The notes under the pieces: model-generated
What the model was told of the DNA's origin: nothing
The model's input: only the letters and a program-made list of their open reading frames with translations
Databases searched by the model: none
Translations under genes and position numbers: made by a program
Source: Patescibacteria group bacterium
Lineage (GTDB): Bacteria; Patescibacteriota; Patescibacteriia; JAHIZJ01
Reading direction: 5' to 3'
DNA: 64,000 nucleotides
NCBI GenBank assembly: GCA_028714495.1
Contig: JAQTMH010000003.1
Coordinates: forward strand, 72,496-136,495
Shown here: positions 23,032 to 34,516 of the stretch, one piece after another
Layout: every line of letters begins with the position of its first letter
Numbering within the stretch: position 1 is the stretch's first letter

Positions 23032-23937
23032 TTAGAGACTAGGCCGGGTGTCTCGGAGATATTCCATGAAGTACTGGGCATCTCGAGTACAACCCTTGGG
23101 CAGTCGTGGAACATCGCGGCACAGCACTGGCCGACCCGAGCATTCGCCCACTGCCTGCCAGAGCTTGATGCTCTGATCCAGCACAAACCTGGAAAAATCA
23201 ATCACGCAGTCAGTCGGAATCGAAGCGCCGCTGATCGGATCGCCGAACGGCAGGCAATACGGCAAAGCCACTTCTGGCTCGCACGGAATCACCTGGCTAT
23301 CAACCCGACGACCTGCGGTCCTCCCGGATAAAGGAACGCCGACATAAAAGTCCCGCTCGCAGACCCAATCAACTACAGCTGGGTACTCGCGCACACCGAC
23401 CAGCTCCACCCATGGATGCTTGGCCAGAAGCTGGTTTTCCGGCCGGCCAATGATTATCCCGACGATGACTTGACTGACCACATAGCCATTTTCCCGCATT
23501 AGTTCGGTTATCCGAAGCAGGGTGCCGCCTGAATAGCAACCGTCGTCAACCAGTGAAATCGGACGACCCTTGGGTAAAGATCTGATTTGGTCAACTAATG
23601 ACTCGAAGCCGGCACGACGCGATTCGCCTAGAATCTGGGTCGTGCTGATATCAGCCACGCGGTTGCACTCCAGATGATAGGGCGTCTGGTTGTAGATCTG
23701 GTCGATCGAGACAACGATCGTTCCGGCGGCTCGGGCAGCAATCGCGGCTTGCAGTTTTCCGCTCAAATCAGCCAGTTCGATAAGTTCAAGCGGCCGAAAG
23801 ATCGTTCGCAGATAGCCAAGCAGCTCCTGCTGGAGGGTCCGGAAAAAGTCCGAACTCGGACAGCTGAAGCCAACACGCTCGGCCCATCTGCGCATGAGGA
23901 ATTCCAGATCCTCGGTTACGAGGTAGGGTGGCTTCAT
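23032..23937 (-). CDS. Type I phosphoribosyltransferase-like protein
   Basis: PRPP-binding-like motif ISLVDDGCYSGGTL; overlaps the upstream gene by 4 nt (ATGA). Confidence 0.7.
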   Translation of the reverse strand: MKPPYLVTEDLEFLMRRWAERVGFSCPSSDFFRTLQQELLGYLRTIFRPLELIELADLSGKLQAAIAARAAGTIVVSIDQIYNQTPYHLECNRVADISTTQILGESRRAGFESLVDQIRSLPKGRPISLVDDGCYSGGTLLRITELMRENGYVVSQVIVGIIIGRPENQLLAKHPWVELVGVREYPAVVDWVCERDFYVGVPLSGRTAGRRVDSQVIPCEPEVALPYCLPFGDPISGASIPTDCVIDFSRFVLDQSIKLWQAVGECSGRPVLCRDVPRLPKGCTRDAQYFMEYLRDTRPSL

Positions 23938-24773
23938 GCTCTCCTCCTTTTCCCTAAGGGTTTCGTGGAAATCCGCTGTAGGATTTCCAGAGCTCCAGCT
24001 GTGATCGGCTCCGTAGCCACAAAGTCAGCGACCGCCTGTAATTCAGCGGCAGCATTGCTGACAGCGCAAAGTAGGTCTACATGTCCTAAGAGCCTGGCGT
24101 CGCTCCTGCCATCGCCAATGGCGATCACCCTGTATCCACGATACTTCCGCCGTAGCACGGGAACGGCAAGCTCTTTGTCTAACCCGGCACTTGATAGAAT
24201 CAGCACACCACATTCAGCATTGGCATCGATGTCCACCAACTCGGTTATTCCCAGTCTATCGAGAACCACTTTCACGGTCCCGACCACGCTGGGATAAGCT
24301 CCATAATCAGGAGTCAGCTGGTTTGTCCAGACATGCAGGCCAAAGCCACAGAGACGGAATGGATTGATGACAATCATCGTGCCTGACCGCGCATCTAGCC
24401 CGCGTTGGTTCGACAGGAGATCAAGGTAGTATTCCTCAGTCAGGGCGAAGTCTGGAAAAGCGCTCCGGAGTGAAGATATAATCAGCTGCTTGACCGAATG
24501 CCAGCCGATTACCTGCTGTCGAGTAAGTAGGTGACTGCCGGACAGCGTCGAGACAATGGCTCCTTTTTCACTGACGATCGGACCGGTAAAACCGAATATC
24601 CCCATCCAGCGCCGAAGCGGCTCATACGGAGTATCCGAGTTTAGCCCGAAAAGATCGCCCGCCTCCATCATCTGTCGAACCAATAGTTTGAACGCGTCTA
24701 GCTGGATTGTCGGCTGATAATCCCGACCGATAAGACTCATGTCGAGATCGCAGAGAATCAGTCTGGGTCTCAT
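23934..24773 (-). CDS. HAD superfamily (IIB/Cof-like) phosphatase
   Basis: ILCDLDMSL, NSD, SEKGA, DK, AIGDGRSD, VSNA. Confidence 0.85.
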   Translation of the reverse strand: MRPRLILCDLDMSLIGRDYQPTIQLDAFKLLVRQMMEAGDLFGLNSDTPYEPLRRWMGIFGFTGPIVSEKGAIVSTLSGSHLLTRQQVIGWHSVKQLIISSLRSAFPDFALTEEYYLDLLSNQRGLDARSGTMIVINPFRLCGFGLHVWTNQLTPDYGAYPSVVGTVKVVLDRLGITELVDIDANAECGVLILSSAGLDKELAVPVLRRKYRGYRVIAIGDGRSDARLLGHVDLLCAVSNAAAELQAVADFVATEPITAGALEILQRISTKPLGKRRRA

Positions 24774-25783
24774 ATGGCCACCTCAGCCAGCGAAGAGATT
24801 AGGCGACCGGCCTGTTCCTGCATGGCTTCGATCAGCCAGACCCGTTCAGGATCTAGACAATAGTCACAACGGCAGGCGGCATAGGCACTGTAGTAGACCG
24901 CGCAGCACAATTCATAGAGCTGAGGCGTAAATATCCCCGCCTCAATCATCAGTTGCCGTGCCCTTTTGATTCTGCGCAAGGCGCCAAGATGGAATACAGA
25001 TCCCACAGTCTTTCTGATCTCCAATTCCTTGCGTCTGAGCGAGGCTTCGAGAGCGGCTAGGTCAACTGCGATGTTTCCGTCCGCCAAGCGCTCTTTGGAC
25101 CAAGGCAACGCCATCTTCGGGTCAATGAATCTGACCCGTGGCTGGTCAAGCGATTCGCTAACCAGCACATTGATAGCGACATTATCTTTCAGCGCCATCG
25201 AAGAAGACCAGCGTTCGAAAAACCAGGGAAAACGCTTTTGCAGCCGATCCAGCGCTGGGTTCAATCCGGTCATTTTCGCCCTTTCCAGATTTACCCGAAA
25301 CGCGCTCAGGCATTCCTGGAAAAACGTCTCTTGATCGTCTTGATTGCCGCGACTGGTCAAACTGTAGATCATTCTCAGCTTGTCAATCACCTGGCCGACG
25401 ATGTTGCCGATCTGAGATTGGCGTCGCTGGATGATTGGATGGTGACACGGCAGTGTTTCAAGCCATTCGCACAGGTCCAGGCAAATCGCCTCAAGCGTCC
25501 GTTCCCCCGCCACTTCCAGAAACAGCACTCCTTGATCATCCGTTTGGTTGACGAGTCGAAAATCAGGCAGAAACTCACCATATCGATCACCCAGCCGTGC
25601 CTGAAGAGTCCGATAAGCAGCCACATCGCCATTCAAGATGTCCAGCCGGCCGGCCTTCACCACGCCCCGGACCAGAAATGTGTCAGCGCCAGAAGCACCC
25701 TCTTGCCTGTCAAATGTCATCAAGCTGACTGCCGCTGATGCCGAACCAATCAAACCCTGCTTTGCTAAACCCAAGAATTCCAT
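24770..25783 (-). CDS. Kinase-like (APH/phosphotransferase fold) protein with C-terminal CxCxxC
   Basis: GASGA loop, VVK, LFLE, LKDNVAINVL, FIDP, DLA; SD GAGGAGG. Confidence 0.55.
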   Translation of the reverse strand: MEFLGLAKQGLIGSASAAVSLMTFDRQEGASGADTFLVRGVVKAGRLDILNGDVAAYRTLQARLGDRYGEFLPDFRLVNQTDDQGVLFLEVAGERTLEAICLDLCEWLETLPCHHPIIQRRQSQIGNIVGQVIDKLRMIYSLTSRGNQDDQETFFQECLSAFRVNLERAKMTGLNPALDRLQKRFPWFFERWSSSMALKDNVAINVLVSESLDQPRVRFIDPKMALPWSKERLADGNIAVDLAALEASLRRKELEIRKTVGSVFHLGALRRIKRARQLMIEAGIFTPQLYELCCAVYYSAYAACRCDYCLDPERVWLIEAMQEQAGRLISSLAEVAI

Positions 25784-25939: not shown

Positions 25940-27058
25940 TTAAGAAACCAAAGCATTTTTCTGCAATATTATGGCTTGTTTTAACACCTCGAAACTGGCT
26001 GGCCTCAGTTCCCAAATCACGCACAATTTACCATCGCTATTGGCGCTGATCATCTCCAGAACCGTCTTGGCTGATTTGAAAACAAATCCGACTGGAATGT
26101 GGTCGTCAATTACCACATCCCTGACGATTTGCCGCTTGTACCAAAAATCCGCTTTGGCTTTTTTGAGCTGATCCGGGCTGGCTTCTTTCGTAAATTCTTT
26201 GGTTGTCAGAGAATCAGACAGGTGCACTGCTTTTATCCTTTTTAATATTTCGGGATTATCAGCAAGTTCCTTTTTAATTCTCTGGTCAATCGAATCCGGT
26301 CTATCACCTGCTTCTTGCCCTAACACCGCAACACTGTGTGCTGTATCAAAAGTAACACCTACTTCATTTAAGTCACGGTTTATAAATATTTCCCTAAAAT
26401 CCGCCAGCCGCCGCACGCCCCTATCAATCGCACTGCCGTTTTCAAGCGTTAATAGTTTGGCAAAACCAGAATCGCGCTTTATCAAGTCTTCGGTAAATTG
26501 CCGAACTGCGCTGATCACTGCCTGATCAGAATATTTCCGATCGCCAAATAAAATATCATCATAATCAATCTGATTCGCGTGCCAAGTAGCAACCCTGGCA
26601 TCCAGCTCGCCAGCGATATCTAACTCTCTAGTTAAACGTTCAATCATTACTTCTGGTTTATCGCCGCTGAAATATTTTCGGACATTGGCTGGAGTATAAA
26701 AAGTACGCAGCAATCTCGCCTGATCTTGCTTGTAAAAAGGTATCCAGCTGGCCCAGTCTGATAAGTGGACAGTTAAATTTCCCTGAAATCTGATTTTCTT
26801 CAGCGGATTTGGATCAAAATTCTCGGTAAAACCGATAAAATCCTGGATCCGAATTTCCATTCCGTCAAAGCCCTGTTCCAGGCACCAGTTTTCAATTCTC
26901 GACAAATCCCTGTTAAACTCCTTGATAATCAGTGAGTTGACTGACAACAGCTGAAATCTGGCCGACTTTTCTTTCTTCCAAAGCAAATCAAAGTCTGCTG
27001 GCGGTTTGAGCGCCTTGAACTTTTCCTCGATTAATTTGTCTTTGCTGGTTAATTCCAT
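25940..27058 (-). CDS. TIM-barrel metalloenzyme (xylose isomerase/AP endonuclease 2-like)
   Basis: GMEI, VHL, TWH, LEN, FDTAH, VHLSDS, DDH, WEL metal-ligand pattern. Confidence 0.8.
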   Translation of the reverse strand: MELTSKDKLIEEKFKALKPPADFDLLWKKEKSARFQLLSVNSLIIKEFNRDLSRIENWCLEQGFDGMEIRIQDFIGFTENFDPNPLKKIRFQGNLTVHLSDWASWIPFYKQDQARLLRTFYTPANVRKYFSGDKPEVMIERLTRELDIAGELDARVATWHANQIDYDDILFGDRKYSDQAVISAVRQFTEDLIKRDSGFAKLLTLENGSAIDRGVRRLADFREIFINRDLNEVGVTFDTAHSVAVLGQEAGDRPDSIDQRIKKELADNPEILKRIKAVHLSDSLTTKEFTKEASPDQLKKAKADFWYKRQIVRDVVIDDHIPVGFVFKSAKTVLEMISANSDGKLCVIWELRPASFEVLKQAIILQKNALVS

Positions 27059-27063
27059 ACAGG

Positions 27064-27822
27064 TTATTTGCTTAAAAGTTCAACCGCCCGTAAAGCAACC
27101 TTGATAGCTTTATCCACGCCTTGATCTGCCTCGGCTGAAGTCTCCAATTTATAAATTAAACCGGGGTCTTTCGCAATCTCGTCCAGCGGTTCAGTGGTAT
27201 TGACCGATAAAACCGTGCCGGCTTTTAAACCTCGCAGCTGGGCTAGCGTAAACACAGCCGAGCATTCCATTTCCGAACTCACTAGCTCGCCTTTTTTATA
27301 TTCAGGCAAATCCATCAGTTTTAAGAAATTATCAGTTGGCTCGTAAAATGAATCGTGCGTGCGGTTTGTGCCGATGAAATATTTAATATTTAATTCTTCA
27401 GCTGCTTGCTTCAAAGCCCGAAACACCTCAGGGTCGGGTTTGGCTTCGAATTCCTCGCCGACATATTCTTTGGTGGTGCCTTCCTGTCGGATCGCCTTAT
27501 CTGGAATAATTAAGTTCCCTGGAACAATGGTTTTCTTCAGGGCGCCGCAAGTGCCAATACGGATGAATATCTTGGCGCCTACCTTAGCCAGCTCCTCAAC
27601 GGCAATGGCCGCCGAGGGAGAACCAATGCCCGTCGAAGTGGCGGAAATTGGAATGCCTTTATATTTACCCGTGTAGGTCAAAAATTCCCTGTTAAAAACA
27701 ACCTCACGGGATTCGTCCCAATATTCGGCGATTCTCCTAACTCGAGCTGGATCGCCTGGAATCAAAACAATTTCGGCGATATCGCCTGGTTTAATTCTCA
27801 GATGTGGTTGTAAATTTTCCAT
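27064..27822 (-). CDS. Nucleoside phosphorylase (NP-I, Udp/DeoD family), substrate uncertain
   Basis: PGDPAR, NREF, STGIGSPS, RIGTCG, EME. Confidence 0.9.
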   Translation of the reverse strand: MENLQPHLRIKPGDIAEIVLIPGDPARVRRIAEYWDESREVVFNREFLTYTGKYKGIPISATSTGIGSPSAAIAVEELAKVGAKIFIRIGTCGALKKTIVPGNLIIPDKAIRQEGTTKEYVGEEFEAKPDPEVFRALKQAAEELNIKYFIGTNRTHDSFYEPTDNFLKLMDLPEYKKGELVSSEMECSAVFTLAQLRGLKAGTVLSVNTTEPLDEIAKDPGLIYKLETSAEADQGVDKAIKVALRAVELLSK

Positions 27823-27840: not shown

Positions 27841-28115
27841 AAAAAACTCTCATTCCTCGACAAGTTATTAAAAATAATAACTAGCTAAGGAACGAGAGTT
27901 TACTCCCGCGGTCCCATCCTTATTTCCGGTCTTTACCTTAAATCAGGCAACAACCAGACACTTATTTCAAGCTTCACGATGCGTGACCACCGTTCCCGGT
28001 TTTGACCGGGACTGCTTAAGAGGTGTGTTCAATGGTTTTCTGGGCCTGGCTTCCACTGTCCCAAGCTCTCTATTCAGCCAGAAATGGCCATTTACTATGC
28101 CTCTTTGTTAGCGCA
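27841..28115 (-). promoter_or_regulatory. T-box riboswitch, His specifier (CAC), with terminator/antiterminator
   Basis: Stem I has AGTA, AGAGA and GTGGAA motifs and GAA-CAC-A (CAC at 28025-28027). Stem II and III are present. T-box AATAAGGATGGGACCGCG lies at 27907-27924. Antiterminator is AAGGA-TGGGACC-GCGGGAG/CTCTCGT-TCCTT; terminator is AACTCTCGTTCCT...AGGAATGAGAGTT plus T-run. Confidence 0.92.
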
Positions 28116-28143
28116 TTTGAATTAAATTATCAAGGTAAATATA

Positions 28144-28188: not shown

Positions 28189-28222
28189 AAAAAAAGCCGT
28201 TGAGCAAGTTACTCAACGGCTT
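28189..28222 (-). terminator. Intrinsic terminator ending the hisS transcript
   Basis: AAGCCGTTGAG-TAACTTG-CTCAACGGCTT followed by a T-run; overlaps the hisS stop. Confidence 0.8.
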
Positions 28223-29600
28223 CAAGAAGTGAACGAATGTGCGAAATCAATTGGTCGCGCGGAACCGAGTGCTGTTTGCCTGCTGCGCCGAATGTGGTCC
28301 GGAGGTTCTTCACGGAAGCTTCGCCTCGGCTGAGCTCATCAGGACCGACCACGATCGCGATCGGTATCCGCTGAACATCGGCGTATTTGAACTGACGGCC
28401 GATGCGCGTTTCCTCACCCATGTAGAGCTCAGTATTCAGGCCCTCTCGTCTAAGCTCCGTGGCCAGCTGCTGGTAGACACCCAACTGGTTTTGATCAAAG
28501 ACGGTGACCAGAACCTGGGTTTTGCTAGGCGCTGTTCCAACCAAGCCGAGCTGTTCCAGGGCGGCGAAGAGCCGATCTACGCCGATCGAAGCACCGGTAG
28601 CAGGAATGCTGGTTTCGCTGAACCGGCCGATAAGTCCATCAAACCGTCCGCCGGAAAACACGCTGCCCCAGGTCGGCAAATCCAGAAGCCTCGTCTCAAA
28701 CACCGGACCGGTGTAGTAAGCCAGACCTCTGGCAATTGACAGGTCGATGATGAAACGCTCGGGCGGGATGCCTTGGGCTTTGAGTCCGGACAGAATCTGT
28801 TCCAGCTCGACGATCCCTTCGTCAACGGCCGAGCAGCCATTGAAGAAGCGCCTGAGCTGTTCGATCGTCTCAACCGGACTTCCTCCTGAAATGCCGACGA
28901 ATTCCATAATCCGATCAGCAATTTCCGGAGCCAAACCGATGCAGCGAGCACCGGCAGGTACTTCTCTCTGATCCACGCCTTCAGGCCCTTGCTTGGTCAG
29001 GGTGGCTTTGACTTCTTCGAGGCCGACTCTCTCGATCTTGTCTAGGGTCCGGAAGATGTCCGTGGCCCAGAAAGGATCGAGGCCCAAGAAAACCATCAAA
29101 GCGTTCAGGATCTTGCGGTTGCTGAAACGGATCAGGAAACGGGTAAGCCCCAGCTCAACCAAAGTGTCGTGGATGATGGCGATGATTTCAGTGTCAGCGG
29201 CCATTGAGCTGGTGCCGACAGTGTCAATGTCGAATTGCACGAATTCGCGGAAGCGTCCAGGTGCCGGTTCATCGCCGCGCCAGACCGGTCCGACCACGTA
29301 CCGTTTGAACGGTCGGGGCAGATCCGGGTACAGGGCGACAAACCGAGCCAGAGGTATGGTGTGATCGAAACGCAGTCCGGCTGGACGTCCTTCAGGATCA
29401 TCAAATCGGAAGATCTTAAGTTCGCTTGCATCAGTCTCTTCGCCGAGGAGAATCCTACGGTCTTCAATCGCCGGCGTCTCAATCGGTACAAAGCCATAGC
29501 GTTCATAAACGCGACGGATCTTCTCGATTAACGCTTGCCTGGCAATCATTTGAGCCGGCAGGTAATCTCGAAGTCCGCGCAGAAGTCGTGGTTCAATCAT
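28209..29600 (-). CDS. hisS: Histidine--tRNA ligase
   Basis: RGLRDYLP, ETPAIE, LRFDHT, GRFREFVQFDID, RGLAYYTG, GGRFDGL, GVDRL. Start moved to ATG 29600 because the track extension runs through a tRNA. Confidence 0.95.
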   Translation of the reverse strand: MIEPRLLRGLRDYLPAQMIARQALIEKIRRVYERYGFVPIETPAIEDRRILLGEETDASELKIFRFDDPEGRPAGLRFDHTIPLARFVALYPDLPRPFKRYVVGPVWRGDEPAPGRFREFVQFDIDTVGTSSMAADTEIIAIIHDTLVELGLTRFLIRFSNRKILNALMVFLGLDPFWATDIFRTLDKIERVGLEEVKATLTKQGPEGVDQREVPAGARCIGLAPEIADRIMEFVGISGGSPVETIEQLRRFFNGCSAVDEGIVELEQILSGLKAQGIPPERFIIDLSIARGLAYYTGPVFETRLLDLPTWGSVFSGGRFDGLIGRFSETSIPATGASIGVDRLFAALEQLGLVGTAPSKTQVLVTVFDQNQLGVYQQLATELRREGLNTELYMGEETRIGRQFKYADVQRIPIAIVVGPDELSRGEASVKNLRTTFGAAGKQHSVPRDQLISHIRSLLEAVE

Positions 29601-29638
29601 CTTCTGATCACCTGCCTTTCTTGATACGCCAGAAAAGA

Positions 29639-29716
29639 TGGGGGGCCGGACGGGAATCGAACCCGCGACCTCTTGATCCACAGTCAAGCGCTCTGACCAA
29701 CTGAGCTACCGACCCC
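29639..29716 (-). tRNA. tRNA-His(GTG), canonical with G-1:C73 and encoded CCA
   Basis: GGGGTCGG...CTTGA-CTGTGGA-TCAAG...GGTTCGATT...CCGGCCCC-CCA. Confidence 0.95.
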
Positions 29717-29741
29717 CAACACCACGAAGAGCCAAAAGACT

Positions 29742-29815
29742 GGGGCGAGACGGGAATCGAACCCGCGACCTCTTGATCCACAGTCAAGCGCTCTGACCAA
29801 CTGAGCTACTCGCCC
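29742..29815 (-). tRNA. tRNA-His(GTG) variant, no genomic G-1 and no encoded CCA
   Basis: D, anticodon and T arms are identical to the other copy. Acceptor is GGGCGAG/CTCGCCC with C73, C at -1, then AGT. Confidence 0.88.
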
Positions 29816-29858
29816 GTTTTCCCGGCCTGAGTTTGTAACAGACCGGGAACTTGTGCAC

Positions 29859-31478
29859 CTAGAGCGCCGCCGCAACCGCTTGCCGCAAAGCGCCGCTCTG
29901 GATCAGCTTCAACATCTTCTGATGGTCAGCCATGAGGAATCGATCATCATTCATCTCCTCGATGGCCGACCGGATCACCTGAAGGGCGACACTGGTACCG
30001 CGACCGAGCTTCGGATCATTGAGCGACTTCTGAGTCAGAGTAATGCCCTGGGCCGCTCCGATGAGCTCCCACGCGATCACCGCGAAAGCCAGCTCGATCA
30101 CCCGACGCATGTGCCGAGCCGAGATTGAAGCCATGCTGACATGATCTTCCTGGCCAGCTGAGGTCGGGATCGAAATCGCCTTGGCTGGATAGCACATTAC
30201 TGCGCATTCAGCGACTAGGGCAGCCACCGCGTATTGGGCAATCATTAGCCCGGTATTGAGGTCTGACTCACCAGCCAAATCAGCTGGCAAGCCATAGCTC
30301 GATTCCGGGTTCAGCAGAGCGTACAAACGAGAGTTCGAGATGTTAGCCAGGCACTGGGCGGCCAGTTTCATCTGCTCACTGGCATGCCCGAGCGGTTCTC
30401 CGTGGAAATTGCCACAAGACACTGCGACAAACTGCTCGCCAACTTGGAAGATCAGCGGATTGTCAGTCGCCGAGTTTGCCTCGATTGACAGAGCTTCCTT
30501 TGCCCGATCAATGATTTCTCTGACCGGGCCGGCCACTTGCGGATAGCACCGGTAAGAATAGGCGTCCTGAACGCGCGGCACCTTCAGATCATTCGGCTGA
30601 GACTTCACATGCTCAGCTGGCAAATCGACCAGTCGACAAGCATGGGTCATCCGCTCTGAACCAGCAGTCAGCTGACGAATCTCTGCTGCCACCTGGATCT
30701 GACCCGGATAGGGTCTGGCCAGGTGAACCCGTTCGTCAAACGCAGCTGTCTCACCGCGGATCGCTTCGAGCGAGAGCGCAGCTGCCAAATTCGAGTACCA
30801 AAGCAGAGACTCAAGGTCAGCCTGTCCCAGAATTGCCTGGGCCAGAATGAAAGTCGAACCATTGGTCAGAGCCATGGCTTCCTTGCCTTTGAGAACGATC
30901 GGCTGCAGATCAGCGGCAATCAGCGCATACTTGGCCGTCATGAATTCACCCTGATACCAGGCACGCTGTTCTTCCGATCCCATGAGCGTTGCCGAGACAT
31001 GCGCCAGTGGACAGAGATCGCCACTGGCACCGACTGAGCCGATCTGCGGAACATAGGGAATCACGCCGGCATTGTAGAGATTGACCAGACTCGCGCAGAG
31101 TTCAGGCCGTACGCCGGAATGCCCCTTGGCAAAGGAATTGGCCCGCAATACCAGTGCCAGTCTGACTACCTCGTCTGGGAACGGTTCGCCAAAACCAACG
31201 CAGTGAGCCGGAATGTAGTGCCTCTGATACGCGGTGATTTCTTCACCGGGAATCATGACGCACTTGCGACTGCCGCAGCCAGTGTTGAAACCATAGACCG
31301 CGTGATCTTGGCCGTAAGCGACCAGACCATCACGAAACTGACCAATCTCCTGCATTCTTTCCCCGGTGATTTCAACCCGGGGAAAAAGGTGAACGCCGGT
31401 AGCATCATCCTCACCCCGGGCTGCCAGAAGACAATCGGGCAAACCGAGATTTTCGCCATCGAGCCTGATATCGCGCAT
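29859..31478 (-). CDS. hutH: MIO-dependent aromatic amino acid lyase, histidine ammonia-lyase-like
   Basis: VYGFNTGCG, GSVGASGDL (MIO tripeptide ASG), QDAYSYRC, GNFHG, QEDHVSM; AAGGAG SD before ATG 31478. Confidence 0.85.
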   Translation of the reverse strand: MRDIRLDGENLGLPDCLLAARGEDDATGVHLFPRVEITGERMQEIGQFRDGLVAYGQDHAVYGFNTGCGSRKCVMIPGEEITAYQRHYIPAHCVGFGEPFPDEVVRLALVLRANSFAKGHSGVRPELCASLVNLYNAGVIPYVPQIGSVGASGDLCPLAHVSATLMGSEEQRAWYQGEFMTAKYALIAADLQPIVLKGKEAMALTNGSTFILAQAILGQADLESLLWYSNLAAALSLEAIRGETAAFDERVHLARPYPGQIQVAAEIRQLTAGSERMTHACRLVDLPAEHVKSQPNDLKVPRVQDAYSYRCYPQVAGPVREIIDRAKEALSIEANSATDNPLIFQVGEQFVAVSCGNFHGEPLGHASEQMKLAAQCLANISNSRLYALLNPESSYGLPADLAGESDLNTGLMIAQYAVAALVAECAVMCYPAKAISIPTSAGQEDHVSMASISARHMRRVIELAFAVIAWELIGAAQGITLTQKSLNDPKLGRGTSVALQVIRSAIEEMNDDRFLMADHQKMLKLIQSGALRQAVAAAL

Positions 31479-31554: not shown

Positions 31555-31789
31555 AGACTGACCTCCTCGTGTTTGGATGGTTTGTTTGCGTAGTGGGTAA
31601 TTACAAGATAATCCTGCCCGCTTAACAAGCAAGATTATTGTCAATGTACTAGCTTTTCCAAGAATAACTCATCTTATCACGGGCCCAGAATCACTGTCAA
31701 TTAGCCCTTATGCACATAGCTTACTACATAATATTCTCAATAAAAAAGGCCGGGGGTTCATACACCCTGACAAAGTACTGGGTACGATA

Positions 31790-32559: not shown

Positions 32560-32718
32560 AAGTTAATATTTACTGGTATTTCTCGCGTTTATAAGTATAT
32601 CAAATAAATACGTATCAGGCATCTTTCTGTACAGCTATTTGACTGAATAAAACCAATATACTAATATGCCCGTGCGGTTGTTTTTTCCTTTTTGTACCTT
32701 CATCCCTGGGAGGGAAAA

Positions 32719-33141
32719 ATGGGTGAACCACGTGTTCCTTCTGGACTCGAAGATCTAGCCAGAGGCGCTTCTTACTCGCCGGCGATTGATCTGCCGCCTG
32801 GATCTGAGCTCGTACCCTTTTCCGGCATTGTCGATACACTTCAAGAAGGTGAAGAATCAATCCCTTCTGATCTAGCCTCCCAGACCAAACGCGTCCTTGC
32901 GAAGATGGTTTCGCAGGTTCAAGCTATGGGCTTGACCGCGAGCAACATTGTCAAGGTTACCGTGCTTCTCGTCTGTCCCAAGTCTGAGTTCCCAGTGTTC
33001 AACAAGGCCTGGACAGAATTCTGGGGTACGGCTTTCCCGCCTTGCCGCCGGGCCCATGGCGTAACCTGGGTACCAGGCACTGGCACGCTGATCGAAGTTG
33101 ATCCGATCGTGGTCCGTTTCCCAGAAGAGCCGACTGCCTAA
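32719..33141 (+). CDS. Rid (YjgF/YER057c/UK114) family protein
   Basis: YSPA, FSG, QT, IVKVTVLL, FNKAW, PPCRR, LIEVD; GGAGG SD before ATG 32719. Confidence 0.82.
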   Translation: MGEPRVPSGLEDLARGASYSPAIDLPPGSELVPFSGIVDTLQEGEESIPSDLASQTKRVLAKMVSQVQAMGLTASNIVKVTVLLVCPKSEFPVFNKAWTEFWGTAFPPCRRAHGVTWVPGTGTLIEVDPIVVRFPEEPTA

Positions 33142-33257: not shown

Positions 33258-34289
33258 TTAGGAAAAACTTAACTCACCCGGATATACCCAAATTTCCTTG
33301 AAGTTTTTTAGAGGTATTAGATCGGATTTCACAACCTCATGATCCTGGTTTTTAATTTGCTCAAACTGCTTGGGCGATAGAATTCGGTCAATATAACCGT
33401 CTCCCCTCTTTTCTAACACGCCAAAACCGGTCCAGAATTTCGCTACTGAATTTGAGGTTGTGCCGATTGGAATGGAATTATACTTGGGTAGCGGCGTGGC
33501 GGATAAATCAACCTTGCCTAATCCGCGTATCGCTTCATGAACCCGGGATAACCGGCAATAACCGTCATGGGCAATCGGGCCCATTTTTATTTTCTCCTGC
33601 TTCTCGTTCTCGTTCAGCCGCTTCCAATCTTCAGCGCCTTGCCACTGCAGATTAAGATTGGACGTTGCCTCTCTTTTTTTCTTGCGTTCTTCAGGCCAAT
33701 CTTTATATTCTTGCTTTACTTTATCTATAAAAGGCTCAAGTTCGTCGAGATATTCTTTTTCATTAGGATAAAGCTCGGCAAACGATCTTAATTCCAGCTT
33801 GATATTTCCCGGCAAATGCTCCAGAAATTCACCAAGTAATTTATTAAACGATTGGCGGTAGATTAAACAGTCTTTTTCCGGTATATTGCTCTGTCGTTTC
33901 ATAATTGAGGGATGAGCTGCCCAGTAGGTCATGATTACTCCAGGCTCATAAGCCTGCACAATGAGAGTAATGTATTTCAACATATAGCAAATATTAAAAA
34001 ATTCCGCCCAATCAACCTCCGGGGAGGTCTCAAAACTCCAGAGTTTATACCCGCCGAAAAAATAGGTAGTATTAATCGGCAGATGTTTAGTCACCGCATA
34101 GTGGATAGATTCTTTCAGCTCTTTAACGTAATCTTCACCGACCTTCCATTTGCGGAATTTTTTTGACATGAGACAGCGATAAATAAATGCTTCTGGTCCG
34201 TTTTTATCCAAAAATTCCCGGTCCGCTGTTTGCGGTTCGGTTTTGGAAGAATTTACTTTTTGACTTTTTAAATAATCCTCGACGGTCAT
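33258..34289 (-). CDS. Hypothetical protein, distant PvcA/Dit1 (isocyanide synthase)-like N-terminus
   Basis: LPI...FGGYK...PEVDWAE...AYEPGV. Start moved to ATG 34289 because the track extension overlaps tRNA-Gln. Confidence 0.6.
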   Translation of the reverse strand: MTVEDYLKSQKVNSSKTEPQTADREFLDKNGPEAFIYRCLMSKKFRKWKVGEDYVKELKESIHYAVTKHLPINTTYFFGGYKLWSFETSPEVDWAEFFNICYMLKYITLIVQAYEPGVIMTYWAAHPSIMKRQSNIPEKDCLIYRQSFNKLLGEFLEHLPGNIKLELRSFAELYPNEKEYLDELEPFIDKVKQEYKDWPEERKKKREATSNLNLQWQGAEDWKRLNENEKQEKIKMGPIAHDGYCRLSRVHEAIRGLGKVDLSATPLPKYNSIPIGTTSNSVAKFWTGFGVLEKRGDGYIDRILSPKQFEQIKNQDHEVVKSDLIPLKNFKEIWVYPGELSFS

Positions 34290-34324
34290 TTTCAAAAAAA
34301 GTCCTTTCAATATAGCGAGCTTAG

Positions 34325-34395
34325 CTCCGGGGCCTGGACTCGAACCAGGATACCCGCCTCCAAAGGGCGGTGTCCTACCATTAGACGACCCCGGA
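34325..34395 (-). tRNA. tRNA-Gln(TTG), CCA not encoded
   Basis: TCCGGGG...CCGCC-CTTTGGA-GGCGG...GGTTCGAGT...CCCCGGA-G. Confidence 0.93.
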
Positions 34396-34516
34396 GCAAA
34401 ACTCATTATAAGTTTTTTATTTCTATCGCCTCGAAACGATAGCGCTGACATCCGACCTAATCAAAAAAGGGCGCATCAACCCTATCCTATCAAACATTCG
34501 CAAATATTTCAAATCC

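Follow-up and report, generated by a model that had tools for sequence, protein, structure and literature searches.

A histidine ammonia-lyase-like gene joined to tRNA-His genes and a second histidyl-tRNA synthetase gene in a Patescibacteria genome

The cassette and its enzymes

We analysed a stretch of 64,000 nucleotides (hereafter the window) from a Patescibacteria group bacterium (assembly GCA_028714495.1, contig JAQTMH010000003.1, positions 72,496 to 136,495 of the forward strand). On its minus strand, a gene resembling histidine ammonia-lyase (HAL), of the 4-methylideneimidazole-5-one (MIO) enzyme family, is followed by two tRNA-His(GTG) genes and by hisS, encoding a histidyl-tRNA synthetase (HisRS), with intergenic gaps of 43, 26 and 38 nt. 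The coordinates (Table 1) bear out the grouping, common orientation, short gaps and single terminator described in the original prediction, which was made from the sequence alone. The cassette is real and conserved. Our preferred reading, to which we give a probability of about one half, is that a forward-running lyase and a backup decoding pair together form a histidine homeostat. In what follows G000 is the window's genome, other G numbers are comparison genomes, L numbers are loci and C numbers are contigs.

Six contigs totalling 1.17 Mb make up the genome, at 98.9% completeness. The GC content of the cassette is 0.56-0.58, against 0.44-0.48 across the six contigs. A second hisS, for which the original prediction had advised a check, is present: the housekeeping copy lies at G000:C3:183120-184484 and its product is 24% identical to the cassette HisRS. 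A third tRNA-His gene, with G-1:C73, lies outside the cassette at C1:121249-121324. Because a canonical hisS and a third tRNA-His gene are found elsewhere in the genome, the cassette is accessory. Three further features had gone unremarked: a histidine T-box operon downstream, an unlinked hutU gene, and the missing G-1 of one cassette tRNA.

The best family for the lyase is hutH (TIGR01225), at 471 bits and thus below the cut-off of 539; five of the seven linked relatives scanned pass this cut-off. Models of tyrosine and phenylalanine aminomutases (TAM, PAM) gave 303, 280 and 140 bits against cut-offs of 501, 800 and 1250. In an alignment to 1GKM the lyase keeps the equivalents of Tyr53, His83, the ASG triad, Gln277, Tyr280, Arg283, Asn313, Phe329 and Glu414, among them the catalytic tyrosine, His83 and Glu414. 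At the specificity pair the histidine is retained and the serine is replaced by alanine, giving AH in place of the SH of P. putida; the pocket further carries F59C and L79Y (P. putida numbering). The motifs pointed out originally, namely ASG, AH and QEDHVSM in the lyase and RGLAYY and GGRFD in the synthetase, are all there. The same AH pair is found at 12 of the 160 general HAL loci, a control set made up of generic HALs among the alignment-search matches listed, many of these loci being short. The clade of the window lyase belongs mainly to the candidate phyla radiation (CPR) and has GCG, Y-x3-Y and AH near the pocket, according to a motif table and an alignment, together with one nearly invariant lysine and two invariant or near-invariant tyrosines; named close homologues are mostly from Patescibacteria. 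The structure model reached a predicted local distance difference test score (pLDDT) of 94.5, and the closest solved folds are the HALs 6V6H and 1B8F (TM-score 0.86 and root mean square deviation (rmsd) 1.9 to 6V6H, other MIO enzymes being similar by TM-score). The enzyme is likely histidine-specific, with L-histidine as substrate. Its histidine content is 2.8%, compared with 2.6% for ordinary HAL, and it is therefore not histidine-poor; the SLOG protein of the island, at 0.18%, is. A complex prediction with one chain each of lyase and HisRS, run with alignments, scored 0.00 and gave no verdict.

The cassette HisRS matches TIGR00442 at 356 bits (cut-off 287), has the anticodon-binding domain PF03129 and retains the histidine-pocket motifs; its nearest solved structures are 3NET, 6NHI and human HisRS. 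The RGLAYY and GGRFD variants were flagged as departures from the common motifs. We rejected them as signs of changed specificity, since RGL[AGN]YY and GGRFD occur in ordinary HisRS: 3NET has RGLNYY, G014 has RGLGYY and G737 has GGRFD. Low histidine content of the accessory HisRS was likewise rejected as evidence, being confounded by family (p 0.71 versus sole eukaryote-type copies). At three loci (L008, L206 and L213, in G027, G600 and G698) two distinct accessory HisRS types are present, with a further hisS or hisS-like gene elsewhere in the genome.

Table 1. Positions of the cassette, its upstream elements and the downstream operon in the window
Feature	Position	Strand	Basis or remark
HAL-like MIO ammonia-lyase gene, 539 aa	31478-29859	-	profile search, alignment, structure model
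tRNA-His(GTG) copy 1	29815-29742	-	C at -1 (no encoded G-1), C73, encoded CCA absent
tRNA-His(GTG) copy 2	29715-29639	-	G-1, C73, CCA encoded
hisS, second HisRS, 463 aa, eukaryote-type ('type A' clade)	29600-28209	-	TIGR00442, tree
Intrinsic-terminator-like hairpin closing the cassette	28223-28193	-	14 pairs and T run; overlaps hisS stop
Predicted sigma-70 promoter of the cassette, TTGACA-18-TAAGAT with TG extension	31671..31700	-	consensus scan, 10/12 matches
Leader hairpin, U run not strong	31608..31638	-	z = -2.0; 8/200 shuffles fold equally well
Upstream open reading frame, 9 codons, strong ribosome-binding site, zero His codons	31525..31554	-	sequence
Histidine T-box leader of the next operon	27885..28118	-	RF00230 90.6 bits (gathering 93), E 1.9e-20; specifier CAC
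Uridine-phosphorylase-like gene, first under the T-box	27064..27822	-	TIGR01718 214 bits, cut-off 280
TIM-barrel (AP_endonuc_2-like) gene	25940..27058	-	Pfam E 5e-7, slightly below cut-off
APH/choline-kinase-like gene, lead only	24770..25783	-	Atlas feature match 0.97; PF01636 on 10-68% of cluster members; zero Pfam
Cof-type HAD phosphatase	23934..24773	-	PF08282
Type I phosphoribosyltransferase-fold protein	23032..23937	-	model pLDDT 90; PRPP-binding motif VDDG in 6/6 aligned

Upstream of the G001 lyase we found a sequence resembling the predicted promoter of the cassette, and G001 also has a hairpin like the leader hairpin; short upstream open reading frames (ORFs) precede the lyases of both G001 and G659. 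Further upstream in the window, a Rid-family (enamine/imine deaminase-like) gene lies on the opposite strand about 1.2 kb from the lyase (32692-33141). The 397-aa ORF at 33258-34451 gave no Pfam or NCBIfam matches, and its 5' end overlaps a tRNA-Gln gene, so that the real start is probably later; a gene 61% identical to it was found downstream of the G001 island.

Conservation of the linkage and a proposed second decoding pair

Searches for lyase-family genes were positive in 18 of 401 class genomes and in 11 of 401 phylum genomes; in these and all other genome counts, related genomes are not independent. The CPR lyases were split by motif and tree into a HAL-type class (18 loci) and a class resembling tyrosine ammonia-lyase (TAL-like, 9 loci), a partial lyase match in G333 being excluded. 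Of the 18 HAL-type loci, 15 contain hisS and 12 contain tRNA-His; two of the three loci lacking hisS have the lyase at a contig end. Neither gene was found at any of the nine TAL-like loci. Among the general HAL loci listed, hisS is near the lyase in 14 of 160 and directly adjacent in 3. By these counts the grouping exceeds what chance would give. Of the 17 other HAL-type genomes, 13 have at least two hisS genes above cut-off, compared with 0/24 lyase-negative controls and 0/9 TAL-like genomes. Gene order varies among the island genomes.

The AH pair does not account for the linkage, and we rejected it as a cause since 11 of the 15 hisS-linked lyases carry the ordinary SH. The HisRS of G659 is sister to those of G000 and G001 (SH-aLRT 96, quick tree), whereas its lyase falls in a different clade. 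This mismatch indicates that the pairing survived while the lyase was exchanged, and its retention across lyase types that the linkage is independent of AH.

Direct hisS-HAL neighbours were also seen in L009 (483-3850; a Chitinophagaceae-titled record, with a G-1-less tRNA-His having A73) and in the metagenome contigs L093 and L096, and the pairing may thus extend beyond the CPR. In the TAL-like class (L184-L188, L215-L218) the sole scanned member, G075, is nearest to the flexirubin TAL FlxA, and five of the nine genomes have a degenerate hisS-like gene elsewhere, below cut-off.

The tRNA genes point to a second decoding pair. An encoded G-1 is absent in 17 of 18 CPR tRNA-His genes adjoining a type-A HisRS, the exception being copy 2 of the window, and A73 is found in 6 of these 18. 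All four tRNA-His genes beside a type-B HisRS have G-1:C73, as does the housekeeping copy of G000. HisRS type was assigned by tree at lyase loci and, at four lyase-negative loci, by best tblastn score; the tRNA-His of L009, a nineteenth and also without G-1, was left out, its HisRS lying outside the type-A clade. Thg1 was not found in any of the five genomes searched. In E. coli, charging by HisRS falls more than 100-fold without G-1, and Caulobacter uses a G-1-less HisRS/tRNA-His pair (PMC3064791). A GG dipeptide of HisRS has been linked to G-1 binding (PMC4357726); it is present in the housekeeping HisRS of G000 and missing from the window HisRS and from all 18 type-A-like enzymes listed. 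We infer that the island HisRS is G-1-independent and would form, with its tRNAs, an additional decoding pair next to the canonical set. The set of G-1-less tRNA-His genes beside this HisRS clade appears new. The predicted coexistence of the two pairs is of wider interest: a cell with both has been discussed as buildable, for incorporating histidine analogues (PMC3064791).

Histidine sensors and the probable direction of the lyase reaction

Directly 3' of the cassette terminator lies the T-box of the next operon, which extends from the uridine-phosphorylase-like gene to the phosphoribosyltransferase-fold gene; it is the sole T-box match in G000. Its antiterminator bulge, UGGGACC, matches a C73 tRNA, and T-boxes with the same CAC specifier and bulge occur in G001, G507, G659 and G740. 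T-box-like elements with other specifiers were observed in the CPR at L295 13772, L296 12998, G740:C1:78185-78405 and G323:C5:13897-14190. Boxes with the HisR consensus TTTA-N6-TAAA, which sense free histidine and not tRNA charging (PMC9413887), were seen at 8 loci; about 15 loci have His-codon leaders. As judged from these predicted elements, the cassette lies within a histidine-sensing island with three independent sensor types: T-box, HisR box and His-codon leader.

Recurrent neighbours in the island are the phosphoribosyltransferase (PRTase) fold, HAD phosphatases, SLOG, uridine-phosphorylase-like genes, the APH-like kinase, GNATs, M20 deacylases, enolase-family epimerases, histidine-racemase-like genes (below cut-off) and YerC/HisR. 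The best structural match of the modelled PRTase fold is orotate phosphoribosyltransferase (Z 11.9, rmsd 2.8 over 112 residues). In one and the same sample, the PRTase is present in 9 of 14 HAL-type genomes versus 16 of 387 others; in 6 of these 16 lyase-negative genomes it still stands beside hisS and tRNA-His.

Profile searches of G000 (98.9% complete) did not find HisG, HisA/F or HisD. HutI together with the entire amidohydrolase family, FTCD and HutG were also not found in G000; an arginase-family gene was tried as HutG and rejected, as it is an agmatinase. A lone, GC-rich hutU (urocanase) gene without hut neighbours lies at G000:C1:80815-82458 (671 bits, cut-off 375). Since HutI, FTCD and HutG were not found, histidine should be degradable only to imidazolone propionate. 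According to the original prediction, a hutUIG set elsewhere with ordinary HAL kinetics, together with the lack of a conserved hutH-hisS linkage, would speak against it; the linkage is conserved, hutI and hutG were not found, and only hutU is present, unlinked, so that the original finding stands. Among HAL-type genomes hutU occurs in 3 of 14, versus 4 of 387 others. The lyase was not found in four of the seven class genomes with a clear hutU match. At L342 7113-8354 (G709) a histidinol dehydrogenase gene stands alone, possibly serving histidinol salvage; the G709 genome has the PRTase module, and HisG was not matched in it.

The direction of the lyase reaction was judged from leaders. A His-rich leader ORF stands directly 5' of the lyase at 4 of 17 CPR loci (G256, G332, G376 and G648) and at none of the 154 general HAL loci listed. 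In all four, the terminator begins ahead of the leader stop codon (gaps of -14, -72, -2 and -30 nt), and the antiterminators are weak (-3.7 to -8.2 kcal/mol). The leaders of tRNA, hisS, PRTase, SLOG and GNAT genes are of the classical kind in 10 of 11 cases, with the stop codon 11-47 nt 5' of the terminator and antiterminators of -12.9 to -28.2; in the eleventh, that of G561, a terminator was not called. The tRNA-hisS-lyase order of G698 is preceded by a classical leader. Between the upstream hisS and the lyase, both G698 and G046 have a terminator-like hairpin and a promoter-like site. Extending the search at family level around G256, G648 and G332 added no lyase loci, and the leader sample is four.

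A ribosome stalled at the His codons of a lyase leader would leave the terminator free, whereas a ribosome reading through would cover it. The geometry in the four relatives therefore predicts that the lyase is ON in histidine surplus. The shortage sensors of the island had first pointed to reverse amination, and the favoured direction was changed to forward because of this geometry. The reaction probably runs from histidine to urocanate and ammonia. Such a predicted His-codon attenuator with inverted logic on a catabolic gene appears new, and is of wider interest.

Competing explanations and related systems

In the homeostat, surplus histidine would be deaminated by the lyase, and the urocanate may then be removed by HutU. 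While the pool drops, the spare HisRS and tRNA-His would sustain the decoding of His codons, and uncharged tRNA-His would switch on the adjoining operon via the T-box. The result would be a push-pull arrangement: surplus would turn ON the lyase, and shortage the tRNA, synthetase and PRTase/SLOG/HAD/phosphorylase genes. Histidine depletion with self-protection by extra tRNA and HisRS had been put forward from the start, and of the three options then given it is the best supported, through the linkage and the leaders. CPR bacteria are regarded as scavengers of amino acids. A conserved island with three kinds of histidine sensor, which seems to consume histidine as well as to safeguard it, suggests that minimal cells actively regulate their amino-acid pools.

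Several points weigh against the homeostat. The search 5' of the window's own lyase showed neither a His leader nor a T-box nor a HisR box, and the direction is consequently borrowed from SH-type relatives: all four leader-bearing lyases are SH-type, two of them (G256, G376) from one family. The window lyase itself scores under the hutH cut-off, and its pocket is remodelled. That the logic is inverted is predicted from geometry; folding at equilibrium does not by itself separate the leader classes, the computed terminator probability at stall being 0.78-0.96 for the lyase leaders versus 0.75-0.94 for three classical leaders. The G332 terminator was called in one analysis and missed by a second script. 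As to the decoding pair, the GG dipeptide is also missing in 11 of 17 bacterial-type housekeeping HisRS, copy 2 of the window tRNA-His retains G-1:C73, and the low histidine content of the accessory HisRS is confounded as described. The kinship of the genomes weakens the counts. M20 deacylases and the histidine-racemase-like genes (G698, G760 and G751; 60-82 bits, cut-offs 300-400) look, by their similarity, like histidine supply. Without HutI and HutG, forward flux gives no glutamate and is costly where histidine-synthesis genes are not found. The cell's gain from burning histidine in this way is not accounted for, and for that reason the rivals stay alive.

Among these, reverse amination, another of the original options, is possible though unlikely. 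Urocanate from the host or environment would be aminated to L-histidine, with the co-expressed HisRS and tRNA pulling the unfavourable equilibrium; an auxotroph would thereby obtain histidine in a single step. HisG, HisA/F, HisD and HutI not being found would fit, as would the racemase-like and deacylase neighbours and the dominance of shortage sensors in the island (T-boxes in five clusters, HisR-type boxes at 8 loci, classical leaders). The four direct lyase leaders have the opposite geometry, however, the lyase is not histidine-poor, the housekeeping HisRS would be equally able to pull, and a co-occurring HutU would drain urocanate. The equilibrium for reverse amination by HAL requires high ammonium, and the ammonium transporter Amt was not found in any of five genomes tested. 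Somewhat less likely again is that the AH-clade lyase in particular runs backwards in vivo on scavenged urocanate as the histidine synthase of an auxotroph, feeding a private G-1-independent HisRS/tRNA-His pair; this would be a one-enzyme histidine pathway in a cell with two natural orthogonal histidine decoding systems. A role in conflict or resistance is doubtful. The island would counter a histidine antagonist or an attack on G-1 tRNA-His or its HisRS, uncharged tRNA-His inducing modifying enzymes (GNAT, kinase, lyase, PRTase, SLOG) while the second pair bypasses the target. Such classes of enzyme are characteristic of resistance to antimetabolites and of nucleotide-centred conflict, the second pair has a distinct tRNA identity, and the distribution is patchy (18/401 genomes with any lyase) and GC-shifted; PADLOC nevertheless matched none of the 8 window proteins submitted, no antagonist was identified, and the signal read by HisR boxes is free histidine, not tRNA charging (PMC9413887).

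A shade more doubtful is that urocanate is the wanted product, feeding the PRTase/HAD/SLOG/phosphorylase set, which would make or cycle an imidazole ribotide as store or signal. The enzymes of this set together interconvert base, nucleoside and nucleotide, and the enrichment of the PRTase in HAL-type genomes as well as the near-invariant lysine and two tyrosines of the AH clade agree with such a role, but the lyase was not matched in 16 of the 25 PRTase genomes, and the control of lyase and PRTase is apparently opposite. The remaining option of the original prediction, a histidine aminomutase whose dedicated synthetase charges beta-histidine or another non-standard residue, is very improbable. 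It could draw on the AH pair, the altered pocket, the score under the hutH cut-off and the separate tRNA identity, which would permit a private code; yet aminomutase models reach at most 303 bits versus 471 for hutH, most linked lyases are SH-type, most of those scanned pass hutH, the HisRS variants are ordinary and its pocket motifs are retained. Because the anticodon is GTG, the residue would moreover be misread into all His codons. Equally improbable is hitchhiking, with tRNA-His merely the integration site of a high-GC island of variable gene order whose genes were joined by accident: the linkage spans differing lyase and HisRS clades, three independent histidine sensors are present and the TAL-like class is never linked (0/9), so that this explanation is largely refuted.

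The canonical hut operon is arranged hutHUIG under the control of HutC or HutP. The cassette resembles it in HAL fold, in catalytic residues, in the presence of hutU in the genome and in a lyase predicted to be ON in surplus. It differs in that hutI, hutG and FTCD were not found, hutU is unlinked, and the lyase is joined to hisS and tRNA-His and scores below the hutH cut-off. Compared with the histidine attenuators, T-boxes and HisR regulon described before, the sensor types are the same, including the TTTA-N6-TAAA box, but the island targets neither biosynthesis nor transport genes, and the lyase leaders, overlapping their own terminator, predict an inverse response (PMC9413887). With the Caulobacter crescentus pair the island shares tRNA-His genes without encoded G-1, A73 in some of them and the failure to find Thg1; there the pair is the sole one, whereas here it would stand beside a canonical G-1:C73 pair, and U72 is mostly absent from the island tRNA-His (PMC3064791). 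Plant cytosolic HisRS with a HAL-like domain also combines a HAL-family domain with a eukaryote-type HisRS, but in the cassette lyase and synthetase are encoded separately and the lyase has an intact MIO motif; ASG is missing from the fused domains (PMC7564348). The fusion is called plant-specific in that paper; we observed ASG-less HAL-like fusions to eukaryote-type HisRS in P0132, P0133, P0134, P0141 and P0143, which look unlike land-plant proteins. A bacterial lyase-HisRS fusion with intact MIO was not seen among 28 long matches, which is weak evidence. No description of the cassette was found in the open-access literature searched, at the level of titles and listings; supplements could hold CPR examples.

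By analogy, the described system that comes closest is an island of Lactobacillus parabuchneri with the genes hdcP-hdcA-hdcB-hisS. Besides its extra hisS, this island carries a tRNA gene and an M20 peptidase under a His T-box; the authors of that study assume that the extra hisS sustains translation while histidine is drained (PMC5313534). Like this island and the tdc-tyrS island of Enterococcus durans (PMC3315439), the cassette appears to belong to a horizontally gained island that combines an amino-acid-destroying enzyme with a second aminoacyl-tRNA synthetase (aaRS). Unlike them, it has an MIO ammonia-lyase, a eukaryote-type synthetase, tRNAs lacking G-1 and an attached PRTase module; an antiporter was not seen among the window genes scanned, there is no known energy gain, and in relatives the catabolic gene carries its own His-codon leader. 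The cassette thus works like a decarboxylase-aaRS island, yet stands outside that family, and is not a complete hut pathway.

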